Below are positions 4,064 through 43,087 of a stretch of 64,000 nucleotides of DNA, piece by piece (the first letter of the stretch is position 1; each line of letters starts with the position of its first letter). Position numbers and translations under genes: made by a program. The notes below the pieces were generated by a model. That model was not told the origin of the DNA, did no database searches, and worked only from the letters and a program-made list of their open reading frames with translations. The DNA is taken from positions 5,216,001 through 5,280,000 of the forward strand of contig OZ245006.1 of NCBI GenBank assembly GCA_965223545.1. The letters are read 5' to 3'. The DNA is from Planctomycetota bacterium. GTDB taxonomy: Bacteria > Planctomycetota > UBA1135 > UBA2386.

Positions 4064-4066
4064 GAG

Positions 4067-5800: not shown

Positions 5801-5888
5801 GCGCGCGTCTGGACCGGTGCGCAGTGTGCTGGCGGCGGAGTGGAAAGTCGAGGATCCGGCGCGGGCTTCGCGCATGATGGGCGGCGTC

Positions 5889-17263: not shown

Positions 17264-17267
<4 letters not shown>
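14505..17267 (-). CDS. fdhF: Selenocysteine-containing Mo/W formate dehydrogenase alpha subunit (920 aa, Sec at codon 366)
   Basis: Two ORF-track pieces are in frame across TGA 16170-16172, giving DNCSRA-U-HSPTVAGL. N-terminal [2Fe-2S] (CYDERL..GGCRMC) and two [4Fe-4S] motifs, CPYCGVGC, RGQNNIQG, TNTERRVQR. ATG overlaps the upstream stop (ATGA). Confidence 0.92.
16140..16158 (-). promoter_or_regulatory. Bacterial SECIS hairpin
   Basis: Minus strand reads TGA, 11 nt, then GGTCGCC-GGTCT-GGCGGCC (7-bp stem, GGUCU loop), resembling the E. coli fdhF SECIS in spacing and loop. Confidence 0.85.
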
Positions 17268-18946
<1,679 letters not shown>

Positions 18947-27232: not shown

Positions 27233-27248
27233 CGGCATGTCGGTTGCG
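27233..27248 (+). promoter_or_regulatory. Putative sigma54 (-24/-12) promoter of the kinase-porin-ABC-ligase-ppd operon
   Basis: CGGCATGTCGGTTGCG has exact GG-N10-GC spacing with GGCA and TTGC elements. Confidence 0.6.
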
Positions 27249-27323
27249 TTCGCGACGGTCTTGCTCCGCGATGTGCAGCAGAATCCGCGTGTTGCCGGCC
27301 AACCTCGCTCCGAGCGGGGCGCG

Positions 27324-28625
27324 ATGACGGTCTGCCCGTTGCCCACTGGTGCATCGGCGGCGCTGGCGCGCGCGCTCGATCGCGCGTGGTTGTTGGCGGC
27401 GGTGCGCCAGCACCTCGCACCCGACGCGGAGGTGCAGACCGCCTCCGCCGACTACGTGCGCTACAAGGCGCAGCACGGTTCGTTGGTCGGTTGGCGAGTA
27501 TGCGTGCGCGACGCGAACGGCGAGCATGCGACCTGGGTCACCGCTCGGTGCGCCGACCCGGCGCGGCTCGCCAACGAGGCGCGCCGGCTGCGCGGCCGCA
27601 AGGAGTCGGTGCACGCCGGGCTGCGCGGCACTCCGGCGCTGGTCGATGACGTGCTGCTGATGGCGTTTCCGGTCGATCGCGCGCTGCGCGGTCTGCGTTG
27701 GCTGCTGCGGGCGTCGCGGGCCAAGGCGCTGGTGCAGGAGCACCGCGCCGAGTGGATCGCGCCGGGCTACCGGGTCTCCAAGCGGCGCAGCCACGCCGAG
27801 CTGGTCCGCTACAAGCCCGAGCGGCGGGCGGTGCTGCGGTGGCGGCTGGGGACGGTGGACGAGGCGCGGCGGGGTGGGCCCGAGGTCACCGCTTTCGTGC
27901 GACTGCACGCCGAGCCGATCGCGGCGCGCGCCGTCGCGGCGCTCAACGCGGCCGCTGCCGGCGGTGTGCGCTGTCCGGCCCGGGCCAAGGCCGTGCACGA
28001 GCGGTTGGCGATCGAAGAGGCCATCGACGGTCGACCCGCCGGCCGTCAGGCCGATCTCGGTGAGCGCGTCGGTGCGCTGCTGGCACGTCTGCACCGCGTT
28101 GCCTGCCCTCCGCAGCTGCCGGAGTGCGATGCGGGCGCGGTGCTGGGTGAGGCGCGCGCCGCGGTCGACGGCCTGCAATTGCTCCAGCCGCGTCTCGGCG
28201 AGGCAGCGGCGCGCGTGCTCGACCGCCTCGGTGCCCGTGCGTCGGCGGCGGTCGCGCCGGTGTTCGCGCACGGCGACTTCCACCGCGGCCAGCTGCTGGA
28301 CGCCGCCTGTGACCTGGGAGTGGTCGACTTCGACCGCGCGGCCGCGGCGCCCGCGGCGCGTGATCTCGCGGAGTACTGTGCCCACGAGATCGGGCTGGAT
28401 CCGAGCCAAGGTGATCCCGAGCAGAGGCTCGATGGCCTGGGCGCCGCGCTGCTCGCCGGCTACGAGGCGGGCGGCGGTGCGCCCCCCGCCGCGCTGGCCT
28501 GGCATCTCGCCGCGGCGCTGCTGCGCCAAGCGGTGCGGCCGTTCCGCGAGCTGCGCGCCGACTGGCCGGAGCAGGCGCAGAGTCTCCTGCACCTGGCGGC
28601 GCGCGTGGCGGAGGCGAAGCAGTGA
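27324..28625 (+). CDS. Aminoglycoside-phosphotransferase/choline-kinase-fold protein
   Basis: Twice-repeated VRYK motif, LLMAFPVDRAL, LARLH, Brenner-like HGDFHRGQ and DFD. Start placed at ATG 27324, downstream of the promoter motif. Confidence 0.75.
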   Translation: MTVCPLPTGASAALARALDRAWLLAAVRQHLAPDAEVQTASADYVRYKAQHGSLVGWRVCVRDANGEHATWVTARCADPARLANEARRLRGRKESVHAGLRGTPALVDDVLLMAFPVDRALRGLRWLLRASRAKALVQEHRAEWIAPGYRVSKRRSHAELVRYKPERRAVLRWRLGTVDEARRGGPEVTAFVRLHAEPIAARAVAALNAAAAGGVRCPARAKAVHERLAIEEAIDGRPAGRQADLGERVGALLARLHRVACPPQLPECDAGAVLGEARAAVDGLQLLQPRLGEAAARVLDRLGARASAAVAPVFAHGDFHRGQLLDAACDLGVVDFDRAAAAPAARDLAEYCAHEIGLDPSQGDPEQRLDGLGAALLAGYEAGGGAPPAALAWHLAAALLRQAVRPFRELRADWPEQAQSLLHLAARVAEAKQ

Positions 28626-30388
28626 CCGCGGGGGCGCCCCGCGCAGTGGTCGTTTGCGTGTTGGCCGCCGCCTGCGCCGGCCCACCGCAGCGCAGTGGGG
28701 GCGAGGTCGCGGTCGGCACCTGGGTCGAGGTGCAGGGCGACGTGCAGGACGGCGTGCCGCGGGTGCGCAGTGTCACCGCGCTCGAGCGCTCGGAATCCGA
28801 CAAGGCCGAGAAGATGACGATCACGGCACCGGCGTCCGCCGACGTCGGTCTGCACGACACGCGGCTCGGGGTGCTGGGCCTCGAAGTGGACGTCGAGGCG
28901 GAGACCGAGTTCGAGGACGCCGAGCGCGAGCCCACGCCACGGTTTCCGATCGCGGCCGGCGATTGGGTGCGGGTCAAGACGCGGCAGACCCGCGACCAGC
29001 GCGTTCGCGCACGCGAGGTGCGCCAGCTCGAGCCGCGCAGGCAGTTCGAGATCGAGGGCGAGCTGACGGGGTACGACCGAGCCAGGCAGCGGTTGACCAT
29101 CGGTTCGCTGCAGCTGCCGAATGGCAGCGCTGCCGAGGTGCGCTGGCGCGACGTGGACGACGACGACGAGATCGATCCCAACGATCCGCTGGCGCTGTTC
29201 CGCGCCGACGACCAGAAGGGCGTACCGTTCTCGATTGCGCTCGGCGAGCGGGTCTTGCTCGGCGGCGACCTCGCCCTCAAGGTCGAGCGCCGCGACGAGT
29301 ACGACCTGCGCCGCAGCCGCGATCGGGACCGCACCGACCTCAGCGCCGAGAGCAAGCTGGACCTGCTGTGGAGCTTCGACAAGCGCGGGTCGTTCGTCTT
29401 GTTCGAGGCCAAGGGTGGTGCCAGTCACTCGTTCGAGGAGGGCGATCCCGACCGCGGCACGACGTCCAAGCGGATCTCGCGCGCCTACGCCTATTGGAAT
29501 CCGAGCGACGCGCTGCGCCTGCAGGTCGGGCGGCAGGACTTCGACGGTGATCGCGAGTGGCTGTACGACGAGATCCTCGACGGTGCGCGCGTGCGCTGGC
29601 TGGTCGATGGCTTCGATGTCGAGGCGTTTGCCGCCGCCGGGCGCGAGTTCCTGACCGGTGACAACGGGCTGGAGGACAACTACTTCCTCGGCGCGCTGGC
29701 GCGCTATCACCTCGACGACGACCACCGCGTCACCGCCTACGTCCTGCAGCGCATCGACTCCAATCCGCGCAACTTCGAGCCGTTCCTGGTCGGCCTGCGC
29801 TCGTTCGCCAAGCCGTGGCGCGGGCTCGGTCACTGGCTGGAGTTGGCCCACTCGAGCGGCTACGCCGGATCGACGAAGATCGACGGCTACGGCGTCGACG
29901 TCGGTCTGATGTATCGCTTCGACCTGAGCTGGCGGCCGACGGTCGCCGCGGGCTACGCGCTGGGCACCGGCGAGGACGATCCCGGCCGCATGGGTTTCCG
30001 CCAGTCCGGCATCCAGGACAACAACGGCAAGTTCGGCGGCGTCACCAGCTTCCGCTATTACGGCGAAGTGCTCGAACCCGAGCTCGCCAACCTCGAGGTG
30101 TGGACGATGGCCGTCGGTGTGCGCCCACACCGCCGCTTCTCGGCGGATGTGATCGCGCACGTCTACCGCCAGGACCGCGCCGTGGACCGGTTGATCGACA
30201 CCAAACTGCGGACGCGCCCCAACGGCACTTCGACCGACCTCGGCGTCGGTGTGGATCTGGTGCTCGGCTATCGGCCTTCGCAGTGGGCGCGCATGGAGCT
30301 GATCGCCGGTCGTTTCGATCCGGGTGCGGCCTTTGACAACAACGACGCCGCGCACAAGCTCGAGCTGTCGGCACGGTTCAAGTTCTGA
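28622..30388 (+). CDS. Alginate-export (AlgE-like) outer-membrane barrel with N-terminal DUF5666-like repeats
   Basis: Lipobox-like LAAAC; VGTWVEVQG and GDWVRVK...EIEG repeats; VGRQDF..DREWLYDEILDG, FRQSGIQDN, FRYYGEVLEPELANL; terminal Phe. Confidence 0.75.
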   Translation: MTAGAPRAVVVCVLAAACAGPPQRSGGEVAVGTWVEVQGDVQDGVPRVRSVTALERSESDKAEKMTITAPASADVGLHDTRLGVLGLEVDVEAETEFEDAEREPTPRFPIAAGDWVRVKTRQTRDQRVRAREVRQLEPRRQFEIEGELTGYDRARQRLTIGSLQLPNGSAAEVRWRDVDDDDEIDPNDPLALFRADDQKGVPFSIALGERVLLGGDLALKVERRDEYDLRRSRDRDRTDLSAESKLDLLWSFDKRGSFVLFEAKGGASHSFEEGDPDRGTTSKRISRAYAYWNPSDALRLQVGRQDFDGDREWLYDEILDGARVRWLVDGFDVEAFAAAGREFLTGDNGLEDNYFLGALARYHLDDDHRVTAYVLQRIDSNPRNFEPFLVGLRSFAKPWRGLGHWLELAHSSGYAGSTKIDGYGVDVGLMYRFDLSWRPTVAAGYALGTGEDDPGRMGFRQSGIQDNNGKFGGVTSFRYYGEVLEPELANLEVWTMAVGVRPHRRFSADVIAHVYRQDRAVDRLIDTKLRTRPNGTSTDLGVGVDLVLGYRPSQWARMELIAGRFDPGAAFDNNDAAHKLELSARFKF

Positions 30389-32259
30389 TGGGCAAGAAGC
30401 GCAAGGTCACCGAGTCGCTGCCGGGTCTGTGGCAGACGCTGCGCCACTTCGCCCCGTACGCCGGCCGGGAGAAGCCCCTGGTCGCCGGCGCCATCACCGC
30501 GCTGGTGGCGAGCGTGCTGCTGCGGTTGGCGGAGCCGTGGCCGCTGAAGTTCGTCCTCGACCGCGTGGTTCCCGCGGATGCGCCCGCAGGTCTGCACTCG
30601 CTGCCATGGATCGACGACCTGTCGCCGACGGCGTTGATCGCCATCGCCGCCGTCGCCCTGGTGGCGATGACGCTGCTGCGGGCGATGTGCGACTACTACC
30701 GCAAGGTCGGTTTCTCCAAGATCGGCAACCGTGTGTTGCGACGCGTGCGGGACGAAGTGTTCTTGCACGTGCAGCGACTGTCGGTCGCGTTCCACGCGCG
30801 GTCGCGCCGGGGCGACATGCTGGTCCGCGTGACCCGCGACGTCAGTCTGTTGAGAGACGTCACCGCGACCGCGCTGCTGCCCATGCTGGCCAACGTCCTG
30901 GTGTTGGTCGGCATGGTCACGACGATGCTGTTGCTGCACTGGCAGCTGGCGCTGGTGGCGTTCGCGGCGGTGCCGCTGTTCGCCCTGTCGACGATCCGCA
31001 CGGGCGGCAAGATCCACGAAGTGGCGCGCAAGCAACGGCGGCGAGAGGGCGCGATGGCGTCCACCGCGGCCGAGTCGATCGACGCCATCGAATCGGTGCA
31101 GGCGCTGGGGCTGGAGGACGCGTTTCGCAACGACTTCTCCAATCGCAACGCGCAGAGTCAGAAGGAAGATCTCAAGGGCGCCAAGTTGGCCGCCGGCCTC
31201 AACCGCACGGTCGACGTGCTCACCTCGGTGGCTACCGCGCTGGTGCTCTTCTACGGCAGCCAGCTGATCCTCGACAAGGAGCTGACGCCGGGCGATCTGA
31301 TCGTGTTCTTGGCGTACCTCAAGCGGGCGTTCAATCCGATCAAGGACTTCGCCAAGTACTCGGCGCGCTTGGCCAAAGGCGCTGCGGCCGGCGAACGCGT
31401 GCTGGCCCTGCTCGGCGAAGTGCCCGATGTGCGCGACGCACCCGACGCGCGGCCGGCCCCGGCGCTGCGCGGCGACGTGCGGCTGGACGCGGTCGACTTC
31501 TCGTATCTCGCGGGGCACCCGGTGTTGGCGGGGGTGGACCTGCACATCGCGCCGGGCGAGACGGTGGCGTTCGTCGGCGCGTCGGGCATCGGCAAGTCGA
31601 CGCTGCTCGGCCTCGTGCCGCGGTTGCACGACCCCGACCGCGGCGTCGTGCGGCTCGATGGTCACGATGTGCGGGAGTTCACCTTGCGGTCGCTGCGCGG
31701 CCAGATCAGCGTCGTGCTGCAGGAGACCGTGCTGTTCGCCGCGTCGGTGGCCGACAACATCGCGCTCGGCACCGAGGGCAAGGAGCGCGTCGAGATCGAG
31801 GCGGCGGCGCGCCTGGCCCGCGCCGACGAGTTCATCCGGGCGTTGCCCGAGGGCTACGACACGGTGGTGGGCGAGCGCGGCGCGACCTTGTCGCACGGCC
31901 AGCGGCAGCGCGTCTCGATCGCGCGGGCCGCGTTGCGCGACACGCCGATCCTGCTGCTCGACGAGCCGACCACGGGGCTCGACGAGGAGAACGAACGCGT
32001 CGTGATCGACGCCTTGCTGCGGTTGGCAACAGCGCGCACGACGCTGATCGTCACCCACGACTACGAGCTCGCGCGGCGGGCCGATCGGGTGGTGGTGTTG
32101 GCCGACGGTGGCATCGTCGAGCAGGGGCCGCCGGCCGAGCTCGCCGCGCGCGGCGGCGCGTTCGCGCGGTTGTTCGAGAGTGGCGCCCGCGGCGCCGGGG
32201 CGAGGGCAGTGAGACCGTCCAGCGGCGGCGTGGCGCGCGAGCGCGGAGGCGACGAATGA
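30388..32259 (+). CDS. Fused ABC exporter (TMD + NBD, MsbA-like)
   Basis: TM region, Walker A GASGIGKST, signature LSHGQRQR, Walker B LLLDEPT. Confidence 0.93.
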   Translation: MGKKRKVTESLPGLWQTLRHFAPYAGREKPLVAGAITALVASVLLRLAEPWPLKFVLDRVVPADAPAGLHSLPWIDDLSPTALIAIAAVALVAMTLLRAMCDYYRKVGFSKIGNRVLRRVRDEVFLHVQRLSVAFHARSRRGDMLVRVTRDVSLLRDVTATALLPMLANVLVLVGMVTTMLLLHWQLALVAFAAVPLFALSTIRTGGKIHEVARKQRRREGAMASTAAESIDAIESVQALGLEDAFRNDFSNRNAQSQKEDLKGAKLAAGLNRTVDVLTSVATALVLFYGSQLILDKELTPGDLIVFLAYLKRAFNPIKDFAKYSARLAKGAAAGERVLALLGEVPDVRDAPDARPAPALRGDVRLDAVDFSYLAGHPVLAGVDLHIAPGETVAFVGASGIGKSTLLGLVPRLHDPDRGVVRLDGHDVREFTLRSLRGQISVVLQETVLFAASVADNIALGTEGKERVEIEAAARLARADEFIRALPEGYDTVVGERGATLSHGQRQRVSIARAALRDTPILLLDEPTTGLDEENERVVIDALLRLATARTTLIVTHDYELARRADRVVVLADGGIVEQGPPAELAARGGAFARLFESGARGAGARAVRPSSGGVARERGGDE

Positions 32260-34028
32260 AGATCGTGTTGGTCTGGCGGCGGACGGGTGCGGCGGAGCCC
32301 GCGGCGGCCGTGGGAGAGCGGCTGTGTGCGCACTTCGAGCCGGTGCTCGCCGAGCGTCCGGCGCTGCGGCACTGGTCGGTGGGGGCTACCGAGGTGGTGT
32401 TGGCGCAGCTGCCGGTGCCGACTTGGCGGCGGGCGTTCTGCGACGAAGACGGCGAGCGCTTCGCGGTCGCGCCGGACTACCCGCTCAACCTCGAGGCGGC
32501 GGGCGTGCTGGATCATCGCTGCGAGCGCGCGCCGTTGCTGCAGCTGGCGGATCGGCTGGCGCGGGATCCCGAGCCCGTCCTCGCCGAGCTGGCGCCGCCG
32601 TTCTCGTGTGTCTGGAACGAGCCCGAGACCGGGGGCTTGCGCCTGCAGGTCGACGGCCTGGGGCAGTCCAACTGGTTCGAGCATCGCGGTGAGCACGTAT
32701 GGGCGGTGACCAATCGGATCGGCGCGCTGCGCGCGCTCGGCGTGGAGCTGCGGCCGGTCGCCGAGGAGTGGGCGACGCGGTTCGCGCTGGGCTGGTTTCC
32801 GGCGGACCAATCCGGCTACGCGGGGGTGCGTGTGGTGGCGCCGGGCACCCAGATCTGCGCGGACCGCGACGGCGTGCGGCATCGCCGGCTCGACGTGCTG
32901 TCCGGCTGGGTCCATCCGGACCCAGCCATCGCCGCGGATCATCTCGAGGCCGGCCGGCGTTCGATCGTCGAGCTGCTGGCGGAAGTCGCGCCGCTGTGGG
33001 AGCGGGCGACCGTCGGCCTGTCCGGCGGCCGCGACAGCCGCGCGGTGACCGCGGTGCTGCGCTCACTCGAGGCGCGCTTCGACTTGCGGGTGCGCGGGCA
33101 TCCCGAGCGGTTGGACGTGATCATCGCCCAGCGCCTGGCCGAGATCGCCGGGTTGCCGATTCGGGTCAGCAGCACGAGTGCGCTGCCGCCCGACAGTGCG
33201 GATGGCTGTCGGAGCAGCGTGGAGTCCGCGCTGGTGTGGCAAGACGGCTACATGACCGCGCTCAAGCACAAGACCTTCCTCGCCAAGGGCAAGCTGCTCG
33301 ATGGCGGAGTGGTCAACGTCATGGGGCAGCACGCGGGCATCGGCAAGGGCGACTTCGCCGCGCAGATCCGCGCCGATCAGCTGCCGCCCGAGGCCTACGA
33401 GGACGCGCTGGTCGCCTCGCTGTTGCGCGGCGTGCCGGCGATGTTCCAGCCACACGTGCTGGCGGCGGTCGAGGAGAGGGTGCGCCACGCCTATCGCCAG
33501 GCTGCGCAGTTCGGTGTCGACGAGGGCCTACACCGTCTGCACTTCTTCTTCCTCTACGAGTACACGCGGCGCTGGGGCGCGGCGACCGTGGGCTCGCAGA
33601 CCGGGCTGGTGATCGCGCCGTTCTTGAACCCCGGGTTCATTCGCGCCGCCTACGCCGCGCCGCCCGAGTCGATCACCGCGCGGCCGTTCCACGGCCACAT
33701 CACGGCGCACCACGCGCCCGACTGGGTCGGCGAGCCGATCGAGAGCGAAGTGCCGCCGGAAGACGTCAAGGCCGGCAAGTATCCGCCGCGCGGGCCGATC
33801 CCCGACGAGCTGAACCACCGACCCCGCTGGCACACGCGCGGCGGCTGGCGCAAGTACGACCACGTGCGCTACTGGCGCGCGGTGGGGGCCCCGCTGGTCG
33901 AGGAGGCGCTGGACGAGCAGGGCTGGTGGACCGAGATCTTCGATCCGAACGCGGTCGCGGCGGCGTGGCAGAAGAAGAAGGGGGTCGCCGACGCGGCGGT
34001 CATCGCGCACCGGGTCGGGCGGCGATGA
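32256..34028 (+). CDS. Asparagine-synthetase-like ATP-dependent amide ligase
   Basis: PP-loop VGLSGGRDSR, degenerate Ntn-like N-terminal region (VDGLGQ), APFLNP; ATG overlaps the ABC gene stop; no N-terminal Cys. Confidence 0.7.
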   Translation: MKIVLVWRRTGAAEPAAAVGERLCAHFEPVLAERPALRHWSVGATEVVLAQLPVPTWRRAFCDEDGERFAVAPDYPLNLEAAGVLDHRCERAPLLQLADRLARDPEPVLAELAPPFSCVWNEPETGGLRLQVDGLGQSNWFEHRGEHVWAVTNRIGALRALGVELRPVAEEWATRFALGWFPADQSGYAGVRVVAPGTQICADRDGVRHRRLDVLSGWVHPDPAIAADHLEAGRRSIVELLAEVAPLWERATVGLSGGRDSRAVTAVLRSLEARFDLRVRGHPERLDVIIAQRLAEIAGLPIRVSSTSALPPDSADGCRSSVESALVWQDGYMTALKHKTFLAKGKLLDGGVVNVMGQHAGIGKGDFAAQIRADQLPPEAYEDALVASLLRGVPAMFQPHVLAAVEERVRHAYRQAAQFGVDEGLHRLHFFFLYEYTRRWGAATVGSQTGLVIAPFLNPGFIRAAYAAPPESITARPFHGHITAHHAPDWVGEPIESEVPPEDVKAGKYPPRGPIPDELNHRPRWHTRGGWRKYDHVRYWRAVGAPLVEEALDEQGWWTEIFDPNAVAAAWQKKKGVADAAVIAHRVGRR

Positions 34029-35158
34029 TCGAGCCCCGCGGCTTTCTGCGGCAGGCGCGCGAGGCGGGCTTCGACTTCGCGACCGGCGTGCCCTGCTCGA
34101 TCCTGACCGGCTTGATCAATGCGGCTCTCGGCGAGGCCTCGTTTCGCTACGTCGGCGCCGCCAACGAAGGCGATGCCGTCGCGATCGCCGCCGGTGCCGA
34201 GCTCGGCGGGCGGCGGGCGATCGTGCTGTCGCAGAACTCGGGGTTCGGCAACGCGGTCAACCCGCTCACCTCGCTGTCGATCCCGTTCGCGATTCCGTGC
34301 CTGTTCGTCACCACCTGGCGCGGCGAGCCCGACGGCGCGCCGGACGAGCCGCAACACGAGGTCATGGGCCGGATGACGCCGGCGCTGTTCACGCAGATGG
34401 GGCTGCCGTTCGAGATCTGCAGCGGCGATGCCTCGGAGTTGTCGGCGATGTTCGCACGCGCGCTCGCGCACATGCAGCAGCACGGAACGCCGTACGGGCT
34501 GATCGTGCGCCGCGGCAGCTTCGCCAAGGAGGCGCTCGACGAGACCGCACCGATGAGGCCCCCGACGTTGCGACCCGAGCCGATGCCGGCCACCTGGAGG
34601 CCGCAGTCCGTCGATGACGTGCTCGCTCGCGTTCGCGCCGCCGCCGGCTCGGGGGACGTGCTGCTGGCGACGACTGGCTTCACCGGCAGGGCGCTCTACG
34701 CGCTCGGCGATCGCGCAAGCCAGCTCTACATGGTCGGCTCGATGGGATGTGTCTCGAGCCTCGGGCTCGGCCTGGCGGTGGCCTGCCCCGAGCGCCGGGT
34801 CGTCGTGCTCGACGGCGATGGGGCTGCCCTGCTGCGGTTGGGCGCCCTCGCCACGATCGGCTACGAACGGCCGCCGAATCTGACGCACGTCCTGCTCGAC
34901 AACGGCGTGCACGACTCCACCGGCGGCCAGCAGACGGTGATGCGCTCGGTCGACATCGGCGCGGTCGCTGCCGCATGTGGCTACCCGGAGGTGCACCGCG
35001 CGGTCGAGCTGGATGCAGTTGGGGATGCGGTCGCGGGTGCGCGGCAGCTGACGTTCGTCCACGTGCGCACCGCGCCGCGCGGCGGGCGCGGACTGCCGCG
35101 GCCGGAGATCGCGCCGCGGGAAGTGGCGCGCCGGCTGCGCGGGTGGTTGGCGGGGTAG
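34025..35158 (+). CDS. aepY: Phosphonopyruvate decarboxylase-family TPP enzyme (possibly arsonopyruvate decarboxylase)
   Basis: GVPCS, ANEGDAVAIAAG, QNSGFGNAVNPLTSL, WRGEP..DEPQH, YMVGSMG, DGDGA, DNGVHDSTGGQ. Confidence 0.92.
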   Translation: MIEPRGFLRQAREAGFDFATGVPCSILTGLINAALGEASFRYVGAANEGDAVAIAAGAELGGRRAIVLSQNSGFGNAVNPLTSLSIPFAIPCLFVTTWRGEPDGAPDEPQHEVMGRMTPALFTQMGLPFEICSGDASELSAMFARALAHMQQHGTPYGLIVRRGSFAKEALDETAPMRPPTLRPEPMPATWRPQSVDDVLARVRAAAGSGDVLLATTGFTGRALYALGDRASQLYMVGSMGCVSSLGLGLAVACPERRVVVLDGDGAALLRLGALATIGYERPPNLTHVLLDNGVHDSTGGQQTVMRSVDIGAVAAACGYPEVHRAVELDAVGDAVAGARQLTFVHVRTAPRGGRGLPRPEIAPREVARRLRGWLAG

Positions 35159-35183
35159 CGAGAAAATCGAGTCAGACTCGGTA

Positions 35184-36293
35184 CTACCCGCGCATGGTGT
35201 GGAGTGCGTCGGCGATGGCGGCGAGCAAGCGGCGGACGTCTTGTTGGTCGAGGGCGCCGATCGTGCCGATGCGGAACGAGGGTTCCTTGGAGAGGACTCC
35301 CGGGTAGATGAGCAGTCCTCGGGCCGAGAGGAGTTCGTACAGGGCGGCGAACGAGAACTTCTCGTCGGGGAGGTTGCGGAAGGCGGTGATGACGGGACTC
35401 TGATGGTCGCGGGCGACCAGCTCGTCGAAGCCGAGAGCGCGCATTCCGTCCCGCAACAGTTCTTGGTTGGCTCGGTAGCGGGCGCCTCGGGCGGCGACGC
35501 CGCCCTCGGCTTCGAGCTCGTCGAGGGCTGCCGCGAACGCGAGGATCGCGTGCGTCGGCGGCGTGAAGCGGAACTGGCCGTTGCGCTGCAGGCCCTGCCA
35601 CTGCGCGTGTAGGTCGAGGGTCAAGCTGCGCGGCGCGCGTTCTGCCGAGCGCAGCGCGTCGCGGCGAAAGACGACGAGGGCGAAGCCCGGCACGCCCTGG
35701 ATGCACTTGTTGGACGACGCGATCAGGTAGTCGATGCGATCGCGATCGACGTCGATGGGGACCGCGCCGAACGAGCTCATCGCGTCGACGATGAGGCCGA
35801 CGCCGTGCGTGGCGGCGACCTCGGCGACCTCGGCCAGCGGGTTGAGGATGCCGGTCGTGGTCTCGCAGTGGACCAGGGCGATGTGGCTGCAATCCGGCGA
35901 CGCCGCCAACCGGCGGGCGACGACATCGGGCGCCACCGGCTCGGTCTCGGGCCATTCCTCGATGGCAGTGTCGACGCCGTGGATGCGGGCAATCTCGGCG
36001 AGGCGCCGGCCGTAGACGCCGTTGGCCAACACCAGCAGCCGCGCACCCTCGGGAAGTCCGCTACAGCAGACCGCCTCGACGCCGAACGTGCCGCTGCCCT
36101 GCACCAGCACCGCGTCGTGGGCATCGCCGCCGCCGGCGAGCCGCACCAGGCGGCGCCGGACTCCGGCGACGAGATCGATGAACTCGCGATCCCGGGAGCC
36201 GACGTCGCGCAGCATCGCGCGCTTGACGGTGCCACTCGTCGTCAGCGGGCCGGGGGTGAAGAGCAGCTTGTCGGGCTCGGGTTCGGTGGTCAC
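35184..36293 (-). CDS. phnW: 2-aminoethylphosphonate-pyruvate transaminase family (PhnW/AepZ)
   Basis: LFTPGPLTTS, QGSGTFGVEA, VHCETTTGILNP, DAMSSFG, SSNKCIQGVPG, QFRFTPPTH. GTG start at 36293 after GAGG. Confidence 0.92.
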   Translation of the reverse strand: MTTEPEPDKLLFTPGPLTTSGTVKRAMLRDVGSRDREFIDLVAGVRRRLVRLAGGGDAHDAVLVQGSGTFGVEAVCCSGLPEGARLLVLANGVYGRRLAEIARIHGVDTAIEEWPETEPVAPDVVARRLAASPDCSHIALVHCETTTGILNPLAEVAEVAATHGVGLIVDAMSSFGAVPIDVDRDRIDYLIASSNKCIQGVPGFALVVFRRDALRSAERAPRSLTLDLHAQWQGLQRNGQFRFTPPTHAILAFAAALDELEAEGGVAARGARYRANQELLRDGMRALGFDELVARDHQSPVITAFRNLPDEKFSFAALYELLSARGLLIYPGVLSKEPSFRIGTIGALDQQDVRRLLAAIADALHTMRG

Positions 36294-36320
36294 GGTACGC
36301 CTCTTGATCGGACCGACAGC

Positions 36321-36336
36321 TGCAACTCGTGGTCCG
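36321..36336 (-). promoter_or_regulatory. Weaker sigma54-like motif upstream of phnW
   Basis: Minus strand CGGACCACGAGTTGCA (GG-N10-GC, TTGCA) placed so that +1 falls just before the RBS; the -24 box deviates from consensus. Confidence 0.35.
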
Positions 36337-36409
36337 CTATGTTGGCACGCGCGGCGGCGTCCGTCTTCCGGGCCCGGTGGGCTGCGCGGCACGCACCGGG
36401 AGCAACACC

Positions 36410-36790
36410 ATGAACAACCGACTGCACATCGCCCTCAACGTTCGTGATCTGGAGACTTCGACCGCCTTCTACGAGGCCGTGTTCGCGCTGGCGCCCGACA
36501 AGGTCCGTGATGGCTACGCGCGCTTTACTCTCGATGATCCACCCCTGGTGCTGGCGCTCAACGCGAAAGACGAGGTCCGCGACGGCAATCGCGTCGGCCA
36601 CCTAGGGGTGCGCCTCGGTGCCGATGGCGATCTTTCGGTCATGCGCAGTCGCTTGGCGGCCCGCGACCTGATCCACAAGGAGCAGACCCGCACCAAGTGC
36701 TGCCACTCGGTGCAGAACAAGCTCTGGGTGGTGGATCCGGACGGCAACTACTGGGAATTCTACGAACTGGTTGCCGACCACGTGTCGTAG
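36410..36790 (+). CDS. arsI: ArsI/CadI-family VOC metalloenzyme (C-As lyase-like)
   Basis: RLHIALNV, KVRDGYARF..DDPPLVLAL, HLG, vicinal CC in TKCCHSVQNKLWVVDPDGNYWEFY; GGGAG RBS. Confidence 0.85.
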   Translation: MNNRLHIALNVRDLETSTAFYEAVFALAPDKVRDGYARFTLDDPPLVLALNAKDEVRDGNRVGHLGVRLGADGDLSVMRSRLAARDLIHKEQTRTKCCHSVQNKLWVVDPDGNYWEFYELVADHVS

Positions 36791-36895
36791 CACCGTGGTT
36801 CGCCGTGGCCTTGGTTCCGAGGCCCCGCGTTTGAGAACGCTACGGCCGCGTCCGGCGTCCGGACGCGCCCGGGTCCCGCCGCGGCCGAGTTCCCG

Positions 36896-36911
36896 TGGCA
36901 TGTGGGTTGCC
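36896..36911 (+). promoter_or_regulatory. Putative sigma54 (-24/-12) promoter of the pstSCAB-aroA-gpmI operon
   Basis: TGGCATGTGGGTTGCC has exact GG-N10-GC spacing; 13/14 identical to the core of the motif at 27234-27247. Confidence 0.65.
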
Positions 36912-36924
36912 GCGTGGTGCTGCG

Positions 36925-37743
36925 ATGAGATACGTGTTCCTGGCCGTTGCCGCGCTCGCCCTGGCGGCGATCTCGTCGGTCTCGTTCGGTGCCGAGAAGC
37001 GCTTCTTGGTCACCGGCTCGAGCACGGTGGCGCCGATCCTGCAGGCAGTGGCCGACCGCCTGGCCGAGGCGCAGCCCGCGCTTCTGCTCGACGTGCAGAC
37101 CGGGGGCAGCAGCCGCGGGATTCGCGACGTCCGCGATGGTCTGAGCGACGGCGGGATGGCGTCGCGTGACCTGGACCCGGAAGAGGCGGTGGGCATCCAG
37201 GTCCGGCCGGTCGCCTACGACGGCATCGCCCTGATCGCGCACCGGGACAACCCCGTGCGTGGCCTGACGACCGAGCAAGTGCGGCAGCTGTTCACCGGCG
37301 CTGCGCAGAGCTGGGCTGTGGTCGGCGGTGCGGACTCTCCGGTCCACGTCGTGAGCAAGGCCGAGGGCCGTGCGACGCTGGCGGTGTTCTTGGACTATTT
37401 CGACCTCGACAGCCGGGCGGTGGACGCCGACGCGGTCGTCGGCGACAACGCGCAAGGCGTGCGTCTGGTCGCCGGCAACCCGGACGCGTTGGGCTACGTC
37501 AGCGTGGGCGAGGCGCTGACCGCCGTCACCATGGGCGAGCCGATTCGGCTGCTGGAGCTCGACGGCGTCGCGCCGACTCTGGAGTCGGTCGCCAGCGGGA
37601 GCTACTCGGTGCGGCGCACGCTCTACGTGCTGTTCCCGCCGGAGTCGCCGATCGCCGATCGCATCTGCGGCTTCCTGGCCGGTGCGGAGGGTGCGCGCCT
37701 GATCGAGTCGCTGTCCTTCGTGCCCTGCGCGAAGCCCGAGTGA
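36925..37743 (+). CDS. pstS: PstS-like oxyanion-binding protein
   Basis: Signal peptide, VTGSSTV, GGSSRG, GMASR, VAYDGIA, ALGYVS, RTLY. Confidence 0.85.
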   Translation: MRYVFLAVAALALAAISSVSFGAEKRFLVTGSSTVAPILQAVADRLAEAQPALLLDVQTGGSSRGIRDVRDGLSDGGMASRDLDPEEAVGIQVRPVAYDGIALIAHRDNPVRGLTTEQVRQLFTGAAQSWAVVGGADSPVHVVSKAEGRATLAVFLDYFDLDSRAVDADAVVGDNAQGVRLVAGNPDALGYVSVGEALTAVTMGEPIRLLELDGVAPTLESVASGSYSVRRTLYVLFPPESPIADRICGFLAGAEGARLIESLSFVPCAKPE

Positions 37744-37767
37744 AGGCGAGGAATTGGGCGTACTATC

Positions 37768-38619
37768 ATGGCTCAGCTGACCGTGCTGCACCGCGCCGGC
37801 GGCGAGCCGCGCACCGGCTGGGCCGCGATCGGCGGGCTGGGACTGCTCGCAGCTTGTGCGCTGCCGGCGGTGGTGGTCTTCCTGGCCGCCGTCGGTTGGG
37901 ACCTGCTGGCCAGCGGCCGCGCCGGCAGTCTGCTCGGAGCGGAGTGGTTTCCCACGCACGGCGCCTTCGGCTTGGCACCGTTGGTCGCCGGCACGTTGTG
38001 CACATCGGTCTTGGCGCTGGCGGTGACGGTGCCGGTCGGGCTCGGCGCCATCATCTACCTGCACTTCTTCGCCGGCCGTCGCGTGCAGCGGCTTGGCGAC
38101 GCCACGCTCGGTGTGCTCGGCGGCACGCCTTCGGTGGTGTTCGGCCTGTTCGGTACCGTCTGGCTGGTGCCGCTGGTCGGGCCGAGCCTGCTCGCCGCGG
38201 TGTTGGTGTTGTCGGTGATGGTGTTGCCGACGTTCGCCCTCTTGGGGCTGGCGGCGTTGCGGCAGGTTCCGCCGACGCTGTTGTCGGCGGGGGCCGCCCT
38301 CGGACTGCGGCGCGAGCAGGTGATTGCGCGGTTGGCGTTGCGCGTCGCGCGCCCTCACCTGGCGGCGGCGGCGACCGTTGCCCTGGCGCGCTGTCTCGGC
38401 GAGGCGTTGGCGGTGGAGATGGTGTGCGGCAACGTGGCGGCGCTGCCGTCGGGGTTGACGGCGCCGGTGCGCACGCTGACCACGACGCTGGTGCAGGAGT
38501 TCGACTACGCGCGTGCCGAGCACAACCAGGCGCTGCACCTCGTCGCGCTGACCGTGGTCTCCCTGGCGGCGATCGCCAGCTTGGCGGCGGTGCGCTGGCA
38601 GGCGCGGAGGATGTCGTGA
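37768..38619 (+). CDS. pstC: PstC-like ABC permease
   Basis: W.PTHGAFGLAPLVAGTL, PSVVFGLFG, ALG, LARCLGEALAV, RTLTT. Confidence 0.85.
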   Translation: MAQLTVLHRAGGEPRTGWAAIGGLGLLAACALPAVVVFLAAVGWDLLASGRAGSLLGAEWFPTHGAFGLAPLVAGTLCTSVLALAVTVPVGLGAIIYLHFFAGRRVQRLGDATLGVLGGTPSVVFGLFGTVWLVPLVGPSLLAAVLVLSVMVLPTFALLGLAALRQVPPTLLSAGAALGLRREQVIARLALRVARPHLAAAATVALARCLGEALAVEMVCGNVAALPSGLTAPVRTLTTTLVQEFDYARAEHNQALHLVALTVVSLAAIASLAAVRWQARRMS

Positions 38620-39413
38620 AGTGGCTCGGCGCGGGTTGCCTGGCGTTGGTCGGCCTGCTGTGCGCGGCCATGGTCGTCGACCTGGTGGCCGGCGGTTTCG
38701 GCGAGCTCTCGCTCGACTTCGCCGTCGCCGCCGCGCGCGACAGCGGTCGGGCCGGCGGCATCGGTGCCGTCGTGTTGTCCACCGTCCTGGTTGCGGTGCT
38801 GGCCATCTCGATCGCCGCGCCGCTGGCGCTGGCGGCGGCGGTGTTGTGCGCGGAGGGGTTGCGGCGTCGCCCGCGCGCCGCGCGCTGCTTGCGCGGTGGG
38901 TTCGAGGTGATGGTCAGCGTGCCGTCGGTGGCGATCGGCTTGGTCGGCTGGACCCTGTTCGGGCGCGGCCTGGGGCTGGGGTTCTCGCTGCTCGGCGGGG
39001 CGTTGACGCTGGCGCTGATGCTGGCGCCGGTGATGACGGTGGCCTTCACCGCCGGGCTCGAGCGGGTGCCGACGGCGTTGCGCCGCGCCAGTCTGGCGCT
39101 CGGCGTGTCGCGCTGGGACACGCTGTGGCGGCAGGTCGTTCCGGCGGCGCGGCCGGCCTTGTTGGCGGGCGTCGCGCTGGCGTTGGGACGGGCGACGGCG
39201 GAGACCGCGGCCCTGGTCCTGACCTCCGGAGTGTCCCTGAGAGTGCCGGGTTCGATCCTCGACCCTGGTGCGACGCTCGCGGTCCACGTCTACAACATGG
39301 CGCGCAACGTGCCCGGCGGCGAACCGCGCGCGTACTCCGCGGCGCTGGTCTTGCTGGCCATCAACGTCGCGGTGTTCGCCACGATCTCGCGACTGCAGCA
39401 CGGAGTTCGGTGA
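38616..39413 (+). CDS. pstA: PstA-like ABC permease
   Basis: SGRAGGIG, VPSVAIGLVG, ASLALG.SRW, GRATAETAAL, TLAVHVY; GTG overlaps the pstC stop. Confidence 0.85.
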   Translation: MKWLGAGCLALVGLLCAAMVVDLVAGGFGELSLDFAVAAARDSGRAGGIGAVVLSTVLVAVLAISIAAPLALAAAVLCAEGLRRRPRAARCLRGGFEVMVSVPSVAIGLVGWTLFGRGLGLGFSLLGGALTLALMLAPVMTVAFTAGLERVPTALRRASLALGVSRWDTLWRQVVPAARPALLAGVALALGRATAETAALVLTSGVSLRVPGSILDPGATLAVHVYNMARNVPGGEPRAYSAALVLLAINVAVFATISRLQHGVR

Positions 39414-40297
39414 TGCTGACGTTCGAACGAGTCTCGGTGGTCGGCTGTGGCGTGCGGATCGTCGACGGCCTCGATCTGGCGCTGCCGGAGCGCGGCACCG
39501 CGGTCATCCTCGGCCCGTCGGGATGTGGCAAGACCACGCTGCTGCGCTGTGCGATTCGCGAGGACGAAGACGATCCCGACCTCAGCTTCTCCGGCGTCGT
39601 CCGGCTGCGCGGCCGCGACGTGCGCGAGCGCGGTCTCTCCGTGCACCACCTGCGCCAGCAGGTCGGGCTGGTGCTGCAGACGCCGGTGGCGTTTCCGGGG
39701 ACCGCGTTCGACAACGTCACCTTCGCCCTGCAGTGCACCACGTCGTTGGCCAAGGCCGAGATCGACGAGCGAGCGGCGCGCGCGCTGGCCGAGGTCGGGC
39801 TCGAGCCCGAGCACCACGCGACGCGGGCGGTCAGCCTGTCCGGAGGCCAGCTGCGGCGGCTGTCGATCGCGCGCACGGTGGCCCTGGACCCCGCCGTGCT
39901 GTTGATGGACGAGCCGTCGGCCGGCCTCGATCCGCTGGCGGTGGCGCGACTCGAGCATTTGGTGCGCACTCTCTCCCGGCGCCGTTTGGTCGTCATCGTC
40001 ACCCACGACGTCGAGCTGGCGCGGCGCATCGCCGACGAAGTCCACTTCCTGTGGCCCTTCCCGGATGGTTGCCGGCTGGTCGAATCCGGCAGCGCGGCGC
40101 AGCTCTTGGATGCGCCGCAGCGGTCCGAGACGCGGCTGTTCATCGACGCGGCGACGCGTGGCGCGGCCGCGCTCGCCGAGCTCGGCGGTCGCATCGAAGA
40201 CTCCGACGCAGAAGAGTGTCTACCGCGCCGCATTCGCTTGAAGGGACCGGTGACCGCGCCGTCGAGCCGGCCCGCTGGTTCCGCCAAACTCCCCTGA
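39413..40297 (+). CDS. pstB: PstB-like ABC ATPase
   Basis: GPSGCGKTT, LSGGQ, LLMDEPSAGLDP, IVTHD. Confidence 0.85.
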   Translation: MLTFERVSVVGCGVRIVDGLDLALPERGTAVILGPSGCGKTTLLRCAIREDEDDPDLSFSGVVRLRGRDVRERGLSVHHLRQQVGLVLQTPVAFPGTAFDNVTFALQCTTSLAKAEIDERAARALAEVGLEPEHHATRAVSLSGGQLRRLSIARTVALDPAVLLMDEPSAGLDPLAVARLEHLVRTLSRRRLVVIVTHDVELARRIADEVHFLWPFPDGCRLVESGSAAQLLDAPQRSETRLFIDAATRGAAALAELGGRIEDSDAEECLPRRIRLKGPVTAPSSRPAGSAKLP

Positions 40298-40306
40298 CCG
40301 ATCACC

Positions 40307-41605
40307 ATGCAAGTCCTCTCCACTCTCTCGCCGTTGCGCCACAAGAGCGCGCGTCCGTTCGTCGCCCGCATCCCGGGATCCAAGTCGTTCACCAACCGGG
40401 CGCTTCTGCTGGCCGCCTCGCGGGTCGGCGAGACCCGAGTCGTCGGCGGTCTGCACTGCGATGACACCGATCGGCTGAGCGAGGCGCTGGACTCCTTCGC
40501 CGGGCTCGAGGTCGCCAAAGTCGACGATGGGTTCTCGGTGCGTCGCGAGGCGGACCGAGTCGGAGCACCGGCGGAGCCGTGCTTCATGGGCGGGGCCGGC
40601 ACGCCGGCGCGGTTCATGCTGGGGTTTGCTGTCAGCGCCGAGGGCGAGACGGTGGTGACCGGTGTGCCGCGGCTGTGTGAGCGGCCGATGCAGGACATTC
40701 TCGACGCGCTGACCGGAATGGGAGTCGAGCACACGCCGCTCGGGGAGCCCGGACACTTGCCGACGCGGGTCCGCGGTGGGGTCGTGGGTGCGCGCGAGTG
40801 GACCATCGACGGTGGCATCTCGTCGCAGTTCACCAGCTCGCTCTGCCTGCTGGCCGCGCAGCAGCCGGACGGACCGGTGCGCATTCGCATCCGGGGCAAC
40901 CAGGTGTCGCAGCCTTACGTCGAGATGACGTTGGCGATGATGCGCGACTGCGGCATCCGCGCGCAGCGCGTCGAGCCCACCTTGATCGAGGTGCACCCGG
41001 GTCGTCCTACCGGCGACACGATTCCGGTGGAGTGCGACGCCAGTGGCATGTCCTACTACCTCGCGGCTGCGGCAGTGACCGGCACCACCGTCGAGATCCC
41101 CGGCATCGGCGAGGGCTCCGCGCAGGGAGATGTCGGGCTGGCGCGCGCCTTCGAGCGCATGGGGTGCACGGTGCAGATGAGCGGCGATCGCATCGTGATC
41201 ACCGGTGGGCCTTTGCGCGGCATCGACATCGACATGGAGGAGATGCCGGACGTGGTGCTGACCTTGGCGGCGGTGGCGGCCGTCGCGACCGGAAGCACGC
41301 GCATCACCAACATCGCCAACTTGCGGGTCAAGGAGTGCGATCGCATCAATGCCGCCGCGCGCGAGCTCGAGCGATTGGGGGTCGGGGTCGAGGAGGGCGA
41401 CGACTTCTTGGTCATCCACCCCGCGCCGCTGCGGCCTGCCCGGATCAACACTTATGACGACCACCGCGTGGCGATGGCGTTCTCGGTGCTCTCGCTGGTG
41501 TCTGCCGGGATCGAGATCGAGGACCCGGGGTGCGTGGCCAAGTCGTTCCCCGACTACTGGGCGGAGTTCGATCGCTTTACCCGGCATCACAACGAGGACC
41601 GCTGA
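40307..41605 (+). CDS. aroA: EPSP synthase (AroA) family enolpyruvyl transferase
   Basis: PGSKSFTNR, AGT, SSQF, SQPYVEMT, MPD, LRVKECDR, DDHRVAM, CVAKSFP. Confidence 0.92.
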   Translation: MQVLSTLSPLRHKSARPFVARIPGSKSFTNRALLLAASRVGETRVVGGLHCDDTDRLSEALDSFAGLEVAKVDDGFSVRREADRVGAPAEPCFMGGAGTPARFMLGFAVSAEGETVVTGVPRLCERPMQDILDALTGMGVEHTPLGEPGHLPTRVRGGVVGAREWTIDGGISSQFTSSLCLLAAQQPDGPVRIRIRGNQVSQPYVEMTLAMMRDCGIRAQRVEPTLIEVHPGRPTGDTIPVECDASGMSYYLAAAAVTGTTVEIPGIGEGSAQGDVGLARAFERMGCTVQMSGDRIVITGGPLRGIDIDMEEMPDVVLTLAAVAAVATGSTRITNIANLRVKECDRINAAARELERLGVGVEEGDDFLVIHPAPLRPARINTYDDHRVAMAFSVLSLVSAGIEIEDPGCVAKSFPDYWAEFDRFTRHHNEDR

Positions 41606-41614
41606 GGCAACGTG

Positions 41615-43087
41615 ATGATGCAGCACAAGGCCTGTCTGTTGGTGCTCGATGGCGCCGGCTACACCAGTGAGAGTGCTGGCAACGCGGTGCGTCCCGACAC
41701 TCTGCCGACGGTGTTCGCGGCGATGCGCGAGCATGGATTTGCCGTGCTCGAGGCCTCGGGAACCGCGGTGGGGCTCGAGGAAGGGCAGGTCGGCAACTCC
41801 GAGTCCGGCCACATGACCTTGGGTGCGGGGCGTGTCGTGCCCTGCATGACGCGGCGCATCGATGAAGCTTTTCGCGGCGGCACCTGGGCGGCGGATCCGG
41901 GATGGGCGCCTGCGGTCGAAGCCGGTGTGCTGCACGTCGTCGGTCTGTTGTCGGACGCGGGCGTGCACGGTCTGGTCCGGTCGATCGAGCAGGCGGTGCA
42001 TACCGCGGCGGCCGCGGGGGTGGCCGAGATCTTGGTGCATCCGATCCTGGACGGAGTCGACTCCGTGGCCGGCAGTGCGCCGGAGCTGTTGGCCGGGTTG
42101 CTGGATCGGCTTGCCGGGGTCGAACGCTGTCGGCCCGGAATCGTCATCGGTCGCAAGTGGTGCTGCGATCGCAGCGGTGACCTGAGCGTGACGCGGGTCG
42201 CGACCGCGGCGTTGGCGAGCTCTGCGGATCTGCCGATCGGCGATCTCGACACCGTCCGCGACCACGTCGCGCGCACCGGCGGAGAGGCCGACTTCCCGGC
42301 CCACGCATTCGCCGGCGGCCGCGGCATCGGTGCCGGTGAGCCGGTGCTGATCACCAGCCACCGCGCCGACCGCGCGCGGCAGCTGGCGGGTGTGCTCGCC
42401 GAGACCCAACCGCTGCTGATGCTGGTCGACCCCGGCGAGGGCGTCGATGTGCAGCACGTGTTCTTCCCCACGGAGACGGTTGGCGCGGGCGTGGCGAGCG
42501 TCCTGCAGGACGCTGGCGTGCGCTCGGTGCGGGTCGCGGAGAAGTGCAAGTTCCCGCACGTGACGTTCTTCTTCAACGGCTTCACCAAAGGCGGCGAAGG
42601 CGAGCGCGTCTGCGTGCCGACGATCGCCGAGGCCGAGATCCCGGGTCAGCCCGAGATGGGGGCCGCCGCGGTGACCGCGCAGGTCACCGCGGCGATGGCC
42701 GACCCGTCGCGCCAGGCGATCGTCGCCAACCTCGCCAACCTCGACCAGGTCGGGCACCTCGGCCGCATCGACCTGGCGGAACGCGCGGCGGCCGCGGTGG
42801 ACGCCGCGTTCGCCCAGATCGTGGCCAGCGCGCGCCAGCACGGCTGGACCGTGCTGGTCACCGCCGACCACGGCAACGCCGACTGCGTCGAAAAAGACGG
42901 CCGGCCCTTCGGCTCACACACGCACTGCCCGGTCCCGTTCTTCATCGTCCCGCCCACCAAGCACCGCGTCCTCTGGAACGAGCAGCGCGGATCCCTCGCC
43001 AACGTCGCCGCGTCCTTCCTCCAAGCCCTCGGCCTACGACCCACCCCCGCCATGCACCCCCCCCTGGCCGAAGTCCACGCCCACTGA
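41615..43087 (+). CDS. gpmI: 2,3-BPG-independent phosphoglycerate mutase homologue with divergent substrate site
   Basis: LLVLDG, GNSESGH, LSDAGVH, RADRARQL, HVTFFFNG, DQVGH, TADHGNA, SHT. Confidence 0.85.
   Translation: MMQHKACLLVLDGAGYTSESAGNAVRPDTLPTVFAAMREHGFAVLEASGTAVGLEEGQVGNSESGHMTLGAGRVVPCMTRRIDEAFRGGTWAADPGWAPAVEAGVLHVVGLLSDAGVHGLVRSIEQAVHTAAAAGVAEILVHPILDGVDSVAGSAPELLAGLLDRLAGVERCRPGIVIGRKWCCDRSGDLSVTRVATAALASSADLPIGDLDTVRDHVARTGGEADFPAHAFAGGRGIGAGEPVLITSHRADRARQLAGVLAETQPLLMLVDPGEGVDVQHVFFPTETVGAGVASVLQDAGVRSVRVAEKCKFPHVTFFFNGFTKGGEGERVCVPTIAEAEIPGQPEMGAAAVTAQVTAAMADPSRQAIVANLANLDQVGHLGRIDLAERAAAAVDAAFAQIVASARQHGWTVLVTADHGNADCVEKDGRPFGSHTHCPVPFFIVPPTKHRVLWNEQRGSLANVAASFLQALGLRPTPAMHPPLAEVHAH

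Follow-up and report, generated by a model that had tools for sequence, protein, structure and literature searches.

A conserved gene cluster at 27237-43087 of a 64,000-nucleotide stretch of contig OZ245006.1 (the window) from a Planctomycetota bacterium (assembly GCA_965223545.1) has entry steps like those of the bisenarsan (bsn) cluster of Streptomyces (SLI1077-1103, MIBiG BGC0001283; PMC4943196 and PMC12159101, both available in part), and differs from it in host, mutase lineage and downstream branch. The cluster probably builds carbon-arsenic (C-As) bonds from arsenate and would end in an amine-linked product not yet described. Gene content, protein families, trees and co-occurrence, from which we infer every reaction, tip the balance somewhat towards arseno-organic biosynthesis by the bsn logic as the role of the core, which comprises lig, ppd, phnW, arsI, pstSCAB, aroA and a gpmI-like gene. 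In the proposed pathway the extra Pst system would import arsenate, and the AroA protein, running in reverse while also being the cell's synthase for 5-enolpyruvylshikimate 3-phosphate (EPSP), would transfer the enolpyruvyl group of EPSP to arsenate to give arsenoenolpyruvate. The divergent mutase would convert this into arsonopyruvate, forming the C-As bond, Ppd would yield arsonoacetaldehyde and PhnW/AepZ 2-aminoethylarsonate; the AsnB-fold ligase would adenylate a carboxylate and couple the amine to it as an amide, and ArsI would remove trivalent organoarsenic by-products. On this evidence we consider it likely that the pathway reaches arsonopyruvate and reasonably probable that it reaches aminoethylarsonate, and give the amide conjugate an even chance.

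All 13 genes of the block were located within this interval by open reading frame (ORF) and family searches (Table 1), in agreement with the original prediction, which had placed the whole gene set in one block. Since phnW lies on the minus strand and the remaining genes on the plus strand, the block comprises at least three transcription units (kin-algE-abc-lig-ppd, phnW and arsI-pstSCAB-aroA-gpmI); a scan for promoters and terminators gave no signal exceeding that of shuffled sequences. The window region is tiled by contigs of public sequencing runs, with no letter differences in the long pieces listed, and these contigs span the junctions kin-algE-abc, abc-lig-ppd and phnW-to-gpmI; the best-matching runs may be the source sample of the genome, and no RNA run is listed among those that hold the sequence. 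The named close relatives of the cluster proteins are from Planctomycetota, and a horizontal island by composition was rejected, GC content and GC at third codon positions being like those of other window genes. Because the core recurs in 11 further genomes, the arrangement is not due to chance. Phosphoenolpyruvate mutase (PepM), noted at the outset as absent from the window, was not found in the whole genome either (8.1 Mb in two contigs, 91% complete): the top match to the PepM profile scored 36 bits against a cut-off of 319.55 and the EDKxxxxxNS motif was not found in the six-frame translation.

The cluster type is present in 12 planctomycete genomes of nine genera and three families, among which related genomes are not independent; the survey covered 278 genomes of the class, and three further cluster genomes came from a 401-genome sample of the phylum. 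In nine of the 12, phnW lies inside the cluster, and in the other three it lies elsewhere in the genome; in G798 the cluster region is split over contigs. Within the class, the mutase was found in nine of the 278 genomes, all of them with Ppd, and the 16 Ppd-bearing genomes divide into seven with PepM only, five with the AroA-mutase pair only and four with both. PepM was not found in eight of the 12 cluster genomes and is encoded elsewhere in the remaining four.

Five stand-ins, assigned through synteny, lengths and published primers, served as the bsn references. They are the five strong matches to the mutase that alignment recovered from 301 genomes in a streptomycete family. In G310 the genes run in the order polyketide synthase (PKS), ketoacyl synthase (KAS) III, DedA, Ppd (367 aa), ArsR, major facilitator superfamily transporter, glutamine amidotransferase (GATase), molybdenum oxidoreductase, AroA (440 aa) and mutase, which in order and lengths is close to the published SLI1088-1098 table, and its Ppd-AroA-mutase arrangement recurs in G100 and G171. 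Three of the four published primers match these three genomes at 0-2 mismatches and the fourth at five.

The AroA protein scored 376 bits against TIGR01356 (cut-off 287). It is 47-49% identical to the Streptomycetaceae BsnM-type stand-ins, with which it has sequence motifs in common, and mostly 28-42% identical to ordinary AroA of its own lineage. In a mixture-model tree of 42 sequences, subsampled from 125 distinct ones, its clade is sister to the five BsnM-type proteins with support of 100/98 and stands apart from the lineage's housekeeping AroA. Residues K22, S23, R27, G96, T97, R100, R124, S169, S170, Q171, D313, K340, E341, R344, H385, R386 and K411 of E. coli AroA, which are catalytic or substrate-binding, are all kept, and the changes relative to E. 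coli are N94G, A98P and P101F. A second AroA was not found in the genome by a profile of 93 non-cluster AroA proteins run over six frames, which gave only the cluster AroA and MurA, the other PF00275 protein. Given that the clade AroA is the sole AroA in five of the 12 cluster genomes and that it occurs as sole AroA, without the mutase, in G021, G022 and G050, the cluster enzyme is very likely a functional EPSP synthase, and it probably also does the housekeeping in this genome. Such an activity fits the reaction proposed for BsnM in PMC12159101, by which arsenate receives the enolpyruvyl group of EPSP; this is the reverse reaction with arsenate replacing phosphate. AroB, AroK and AroC are encoded at scattered loci here, and relatives keep these genes beside their aroA; an E. 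coli AroE query had no match in the genome while AroB, AroK and AroC queries did. According to the original prediction, an AroA that was the only copy and grouped with housekeeping orthologues would speak against arsenic chemistry: it is indeed the only copy, yet it does not group with the housekeeping AroA of the lineage. That a sole AroA in itself refutes the arsenic reading was rejected, since seven of the 12 cluster genomes have a second AroA-like gene (one above the cut-off and six below, one of these partial) and the tree places the cluster AroA with BsnM.

The gpmI-like gene lies directly 3' of aroA, and its product scored 286 bits, below the GpmI cut-off of 331. The catalytic Ser and the metal ligands of the cofactor-independent phosphoglycerate mutase (iPGM) family are conserved, but the LDGRD motif has become LDGVD and ETEKY has become EKCKF, so that the substrate Arg is replaced by Val and the Glu beside the substrate Lys by an invariant Cys. 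The genome holds a second, intact gpmI (C1:7526705-7528225), and of the second copies that the original prediction had asked about, gpmI thus has one and aroA has none. The gene is a paralogue belonging to a separate clade. A plasmid search with the mutase returned ordinary gpmI-level matches only (46 records below 60% identity).

The arsenic link of this mutase comes from its genomic context. Its clade includes 71 metagenome loci, and aroA lies directly upstream in 33 of the 46 with enough flank. Among loci of at least 6 kb, 12 of 26 mutase loci carry an arsenic gene, versus none of 60 control aroA loci, and aioAB, ArsH, ArsM, ArsI and the ArsJ-associated glyceraldehyde-3-phosphate dehydrogenase (GAPDH) occur in mutase-clade loci above their NCBIfam cut-offs. 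The mutase clade is therefore arsenic-linked independently of AroA. A scan of genome contigs with AroA alone gave 63 loci at 31-43% identity, none with mutase or Ppd, which were used solely as controls.

The ligase has no Pfam or NCBIfam match; in its nearest Atlas clusters, 17-97% of members carry PF00733. Its structural model (mean predicted confidence, pLDDT, 93.7) matches TsnB9, carbapenam synthetase, AsnB and beta-lactam synthetase with E values of 1e-14 to 1e-12 at 12-15% identity, sharing the two-domain fold of an N-terminal nucleophile hydrolase and an ATP-pyrophosphatase with its SGGxDS loop, which is kept in 49 of 54 aligned relatives. Unlike glutamine-dependent asparagine synthetase B, it has no N-terminal catalytic Cys: the protein begins MKIVL, and only two of the 54 relatives have a Cys within the first five residues. 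Lacking Cys1, the enzyme should take an external amine; it is not AsnB and would work like a beta-lactam-synthetase-type ligase. In our search the ligase fell into a separate, unnamed family with about 56 close members, and strong orthologues are present in all nine mutase genomes of the class and in none of the other 269; it occurs in 12 of 12 cluster genomes and in none of the seven PepM-only genomes. Of the predicted amide ligase, then, the fold and an exact tracking of the mutase stand, and its product and acceptor are putative. In G799:C110 and G854:C145, ppd is flanked or preceded by two copies of the ligase gene. A further copy in G015:C6 (L337) follows genes for a peptidase C39, a RimK-like ATP-grasp protein and a GCS2 protein, hinting at a peptide or glutamyl acceptor.

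Ppd scored 375 bits against TIGR03297 (cut-off 312.5), is single-copy in all 12 cluster genomes and is 42-44% identical to the BsnJ type. The aminotransferase scored 441 bits against TIGR03301 (cut-off 361), is also above the cut-offs of TIGR02326 and NF010006, and has 1m32 as closest solved structure (E 5e-98). Lacoste is said to have found in 1992 that PhnW accepts aminoethylarsonate. These two enzymes are what the cluster has in common with 2-aminoethylphosphonate biosynthesis (PepM, Ppd, AepZ), its Ppd lying near the PepM-linked Ppds of the class; it differs in that no PepM was found in this genome and no nucleotidyltransferase is in the cluster, which has the AroA-mutase pair, ArsI, Pst and the ligase instead.

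The ArsI/CadI protein (129 bits against NF041414, cut-off 116) aligns the His, His and Glu metal ligands of vicinal oxygen chelate (VOC) enzymes and a Cys-Cys pair with ArsI, a C-As lyase, and matches 5c4p and 5dfg, presumably ArsI structures, at E 1e-23. It differs from known ArsI in lying in a biosynthetic operon and not in an ars operon, and a lyase role is putative here. The gene is present in eight of the 12 clusters and in four of the five Streptomycetaceae bsn-like loci. Elsewhere the genome has ArsM-like and ArsC-like genes, and an Acr3 query found no match in it. The four Pst subunits match PF12849, PF00528 (twice) and PF00005, all below NCBIfam cut-offs, and eight of the 12 cluster genomes have the full set; another pst operon, which includes phoU, lies at C1:5655-5667 kb. 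In the cluster PstS (window 36925-37743) a KxEGRxT motif stands in place of the REDGSGT of solved homologues, and KxxGRxT replaces RxxxSGT in the cluster PstS of several lineages and of one Streptomycetaceae bsn-like locus, so that PstS proteins with this motif are a candidate arsenate-accepting subfamily. PstS proteins of the S type discriminate poorly against arsenate, according to the available part of PMC13614923.

Table 1. Features of the block, with positions in the window
Feature	Positions	Strand	Remarks
APH-family (aminoglycoside phosphotransferase-like) phosphotransferase	27237..28625	+	PF01636, E 1e-14; accessory, shared with the GT28-GT4-ABC-APH-AlgE module
AlgE-like outer-membrane porin	28622..30388	+	PF13372, E 3e-29; probably glycosyltransferase (GT) module, not core
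ABC exporter, MsbA/HepA-like	30388..32259	+	PF00664 and PF00005; probably GT module
AsnB-fold ATP-dependent amide ligase without glutaminase Cys1	32256..34028	+	core gene, 590 residues
Phosphonopyruvate decarboxylase family (Ppd)	34025..35158	+	proposed arsonopyruvate decarboxylase
PhnW/AepZ aminotransferase	35184..36293	-	proposed transaminase for arsonoacetaldehyde; 36392 is a possible alternative ORF start
ArsI/CadI VOC enzyme with vicinal Cys-Cys pair	36410..36790	+	NF041414
Second PstSCAB system, variant PstS	36925..40297	+	proposed arsenate or oxyanion importer
BsnM-clade EPSP synthase (AroA)	40307..41605	+	sole AroA in genome; proposed bifunctional EPSP synthase/arsenoenolpyruvate synthase
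Divergent iPGM-family mutase	41612..43087	+	proposed C-As bond-forming arsonopyruvate mutase

Like bsn, the cluster combines a decarboxylase of the Ppd family and an ABC system of the Pst type with an AroA paralogue of the same clade that has an iPGM-like gene immediately after it, and ArsI homologues lie near most of the bsn-like loci. The bsn cluster itself has PstS and ABC subunits, with an arsenate-induced binding-protein gene (PMC4943196, available part). Unlike bsn, the planctomycete cluster is in a diderm host, its AroA is the sole copy, its mutase has different active-site changes, its Ppd is of the planctomycete phosphonate type, and PhnW/AepZ and the AsnB-fold ligase would replace reduction to 2-hydroxyethylarsonate and PKS acylation. 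It is also without the CTP-synthase-like gene that is conserved in the published set, the PKS acyl donor of the S. lividans subclass, the molybdenum oxidoreductase, ArsR and Acr3; a GATase-like match of 29% lies about 33 kb beyond the mutase. The available part of PMC4943196 describes 26 related clusters as "only found in actinomycetes", that of PMC12159101 describes bsnMN as widespread among actinobacteria, and the accessible portions of PMC13728944 and of the bioRxiv preprints 10.64898/2026.06.06.730586 and 10.64898/2026.04.29.721666 contain no non-actinobacterial case. Our search of the literature, most subscription papers aside, turned up neither a natural pathway to aminoethylarsonate nor a planctomycete cluster; Hoshino 2023/2025 may hold wider genome mining.

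Several observations weigh against an arsenic pathway. The clade AroA stands alone, without the mutase, in other genomes, so its presence needs no arsenic role, and by itself it is no proof of arsenic chemistry. The mutase is 32-35% identical to BsnN-type proteins, and in a tree of 34 sequences both groups sit on long stems and are joined at only 93/93 (80-92 in quick trees), with two shared-derived conserved columns versus 11 and 14 unshared ones; the predicted GpmI homologue is a divergent paralogue in a genome with an intact second gpmI, and BsnN is no more than a candidate orthologue of it. Ppd groups not with the BsnJ type but with PepM-linked planctomycete phosphonate decarboxylases (96 SH-aLRT, quick tree of 28 sequences). 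In four of the 12 cluster genomes PepM is present elsewhere and the cluster Ppd is the sole Ppd, so there it probably also handles phosphonopyruvate. The arsI gene is missing from four of the 12 clusters, and neither ArsR nor an arsenite pump is found in this one. The arsenic-gene queries came partly from the same metagenome loci, the count falling to 8 of 22 once the four loci of origin are set aside, and near-duplicates are present. Finally, a ligase paralogue in G015 lies in an unrelated ATP-grasp/GCS2 operon.

These points bear on three other explanations. The one that survives best, and which we nevertheless judge unlikely, is a dual phosphorus and arsenic pathway in which Ppd, PhnW and the ligase are shared and take phosphonopyruvate (where PepM is present) or arsonopyruvate, the arsonate replacing aminoethylphosphonate in a surface or peptide conjugate and sparing phosphorus. 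It would account for the single Ppd of the four genomes with both systems, for a Ppd tree that does not separate PepM and mutase contexts, and for a dedicated importer, which fits arsenate use rather than exclusion; however, PepM was not found in the source genome and seven other cluster genomes, and the ligase is absent from every PepM-only genome.

Improbable too, and ranked behind it, is a PepM-independent phosphonate pathway, in which the mutase would make phosphonopyruvate, Ppd and AepZ would give 2-aminoethylphosphonate, Pst would bring in phosphate and the product would decorate a glycan handled by the GT, ABC, APH and AlgE proteins. Such a pathway leaves unexplained the BsnM-clade AroA upstream of the mutase at most informative loci, the ArsI of most clusters and the arsenic genes around the mutase clade, and four genomes retain both PepM and the mutase system. 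In its favour, Ppd is for the most part accompanied by either PepM or the mutase pair across the class and clusters with PepM-linked enzymes in its tree; in addition, PepM has the GT module as its neighbour in G798, G799 and G800, and ppd has APH next to it in the PepM-only G797. We know of no iPGM-type enzyme that forms C-P bonds.

Least probable is a catabolic or detoxifying cluster, in which an organoarsonate or aminoethylphosphonate would enter through Pst and be deaminated by PhnW, ArsI would cut the C-As bond, and aroA and gpmI would be housekeeping genes that happen to lie there: PhnW models do include catabolic enzymes, ArsI is a C-As lyase, the AroA is the only copy and chorismate-requiring menaquinone genes lie next to the cluster, but Ppd, which commits to biosynthesis, is in all 12 clusters, PhnX was above its cut-off in none of the 12 genomes (no control genome passed either), the mutase has lost its substrate-binding Arg beside an intact second gpmI, and the menaquinone genes are not beside the cluster in the fetched regions of the other genomes. 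A search for PhnA found no match anywhere, controls included.

If arseno-organic biosynthesis is the correct reading, the S-adenosylmethionine-independent C-As route, reported only from actinomycetes in the available part of PMC4943196, would extend well beyond them, 2-aminoethylarsonate would count among natural products, and the arsenic cycle would receive organoarsenicals from a pool so far unrecognised. It also yields a prediction on the proposed BsnM mechanism, namely that an enzyme using EPSP as donor should still act as EPSP synthase, here as the only AroA of several cluster genomes. The four-gene core is small enough for direct testing, and the AroA-mutase module occurs in many metagenome loci with varied tailoring genes.

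Among these loci, L139:6334-11309 and L145:9989-16492 have the order aroA-mutase-transglutaminase-like-ppd followed by an aldehyde dehydrogenase, which in L139, as a partial ORF, scored 592 bits against TIGR03250 (phosphonoacetaldehyde dehydrogenase, cut-off 636) and suggests an arsonoacetate branch. In L141:4402-14571, L143 and L144 genes for arsenite oxidase immediately adjoin the pair, accompanied by ArsR, ArsP-like and ArsM genes, so that arsenite oxidation could supply the arsenate. In L155:8603-14892, L160:975-4656 and L157 the pair is followed by an adenylation-acyl carrier protein (ACP)-ketosynthase protein or by ACP, ketosynthase and FabA-like genes, making acyl or polyketide arsonates possible outside the planctomycete clade. 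In L142:1892-8306 (also L193, L195 and L196) the genes after ppd-aroA-mutase encode an aminotransferase distantly similar to PhnW (25%) and an ATP-grasp ligase of TupA type, and ArsM lies upstream; by gene content, loci of this type follow the same logic with an aminotransferase and a ligase of independent kind. One branch of this mutase clade, without AroA (L161-L192, for example L166:2465-10875, L192 and L162), combines a divergent enolase, the ArsJ-associated GAPDH (above cut-off), a histidine phosphatase, pstSCAB, the mutase and a dual-specificity phosphatase-like gene, and may make arsenoenolpyruvate by a parallel lower glycolysis. Tentatively, we postulate that another family of C-As mutases arose from iPGM separately, carries an invariant active-site Cys, is spread across diderms and might feed an arsonate counterpart of phosphonate metabolism: a 2-aminoethylarsonate amide via a dual-role AroA in planctomycetes, arsonoacetate (through a PhnY-like dehydrogenase) or acylated products elsewhere, and an AroA-free branch fed by the ArsJ-type GAPDH and the divergent enolase.

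Of the arsenic pathway originally predicted, the pairing of AroA with an iPGM-like protein is upheld, together with Ppd, PhnW, ArsI, a second Pst and a genome in which no PepM was found, whereas export through the ABC transporter and the porin is not, and was rejected. The ABC gene is beside the cluster in three of the 12 genomes, with only 34-36% identity in the other two, AlgE is beside it in the source genome alone, and the module to which both probably belong occurs elsewhere without the mutase; export of an arsenical is therefore unsupported, and we consider it doubtful that these two proteins perform it. The exporter scored below all NCBIfam cut-offs shown, and a 54% homologue lies upstream of aroA-gpmI in L177. 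The APH gene adjoins the cluster in eight of the 12 genomes and has a 42% paralogue in the GT module at C1:5650091, the GT and APH genes of the module in the source genome lying 400 kb away without ABC and AlgE. This GT28-GT4-GT4-ABC-APH-AlgE module is seen at G000:C1:5646575-5652600 (L119), where it is split, and at L111, L366, L367 and L369; AlgE is part of it in G050, G056 and G800. Its neighbour is PepM in one genus and, in another, the clade AroA without the mutase (G050, partly seen in G056). Since the module recurs near PepM and near the cluster, a link between the two is possible.

Directly after the mutase, menaquinone genes (menF, menD-like, menH-like, menC and menE-like) occupy window positions 43130-49401 on the minus strand; as a reason for the presence of aroA they were rejected, this adjacency not being conserved. 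Further away on the same strand, genes for an NAD-linked formate dehydrogenase lie at 14508-18946, the alpha subunit having an in-frame TGA codon where selenocysteine usually stands, between the ORFs 16173-17267 and 14508-16121, and the A and B subunits of topoisomerase VI, encoded at 2726-5890, carry Lys-rich N-terminal extensions.

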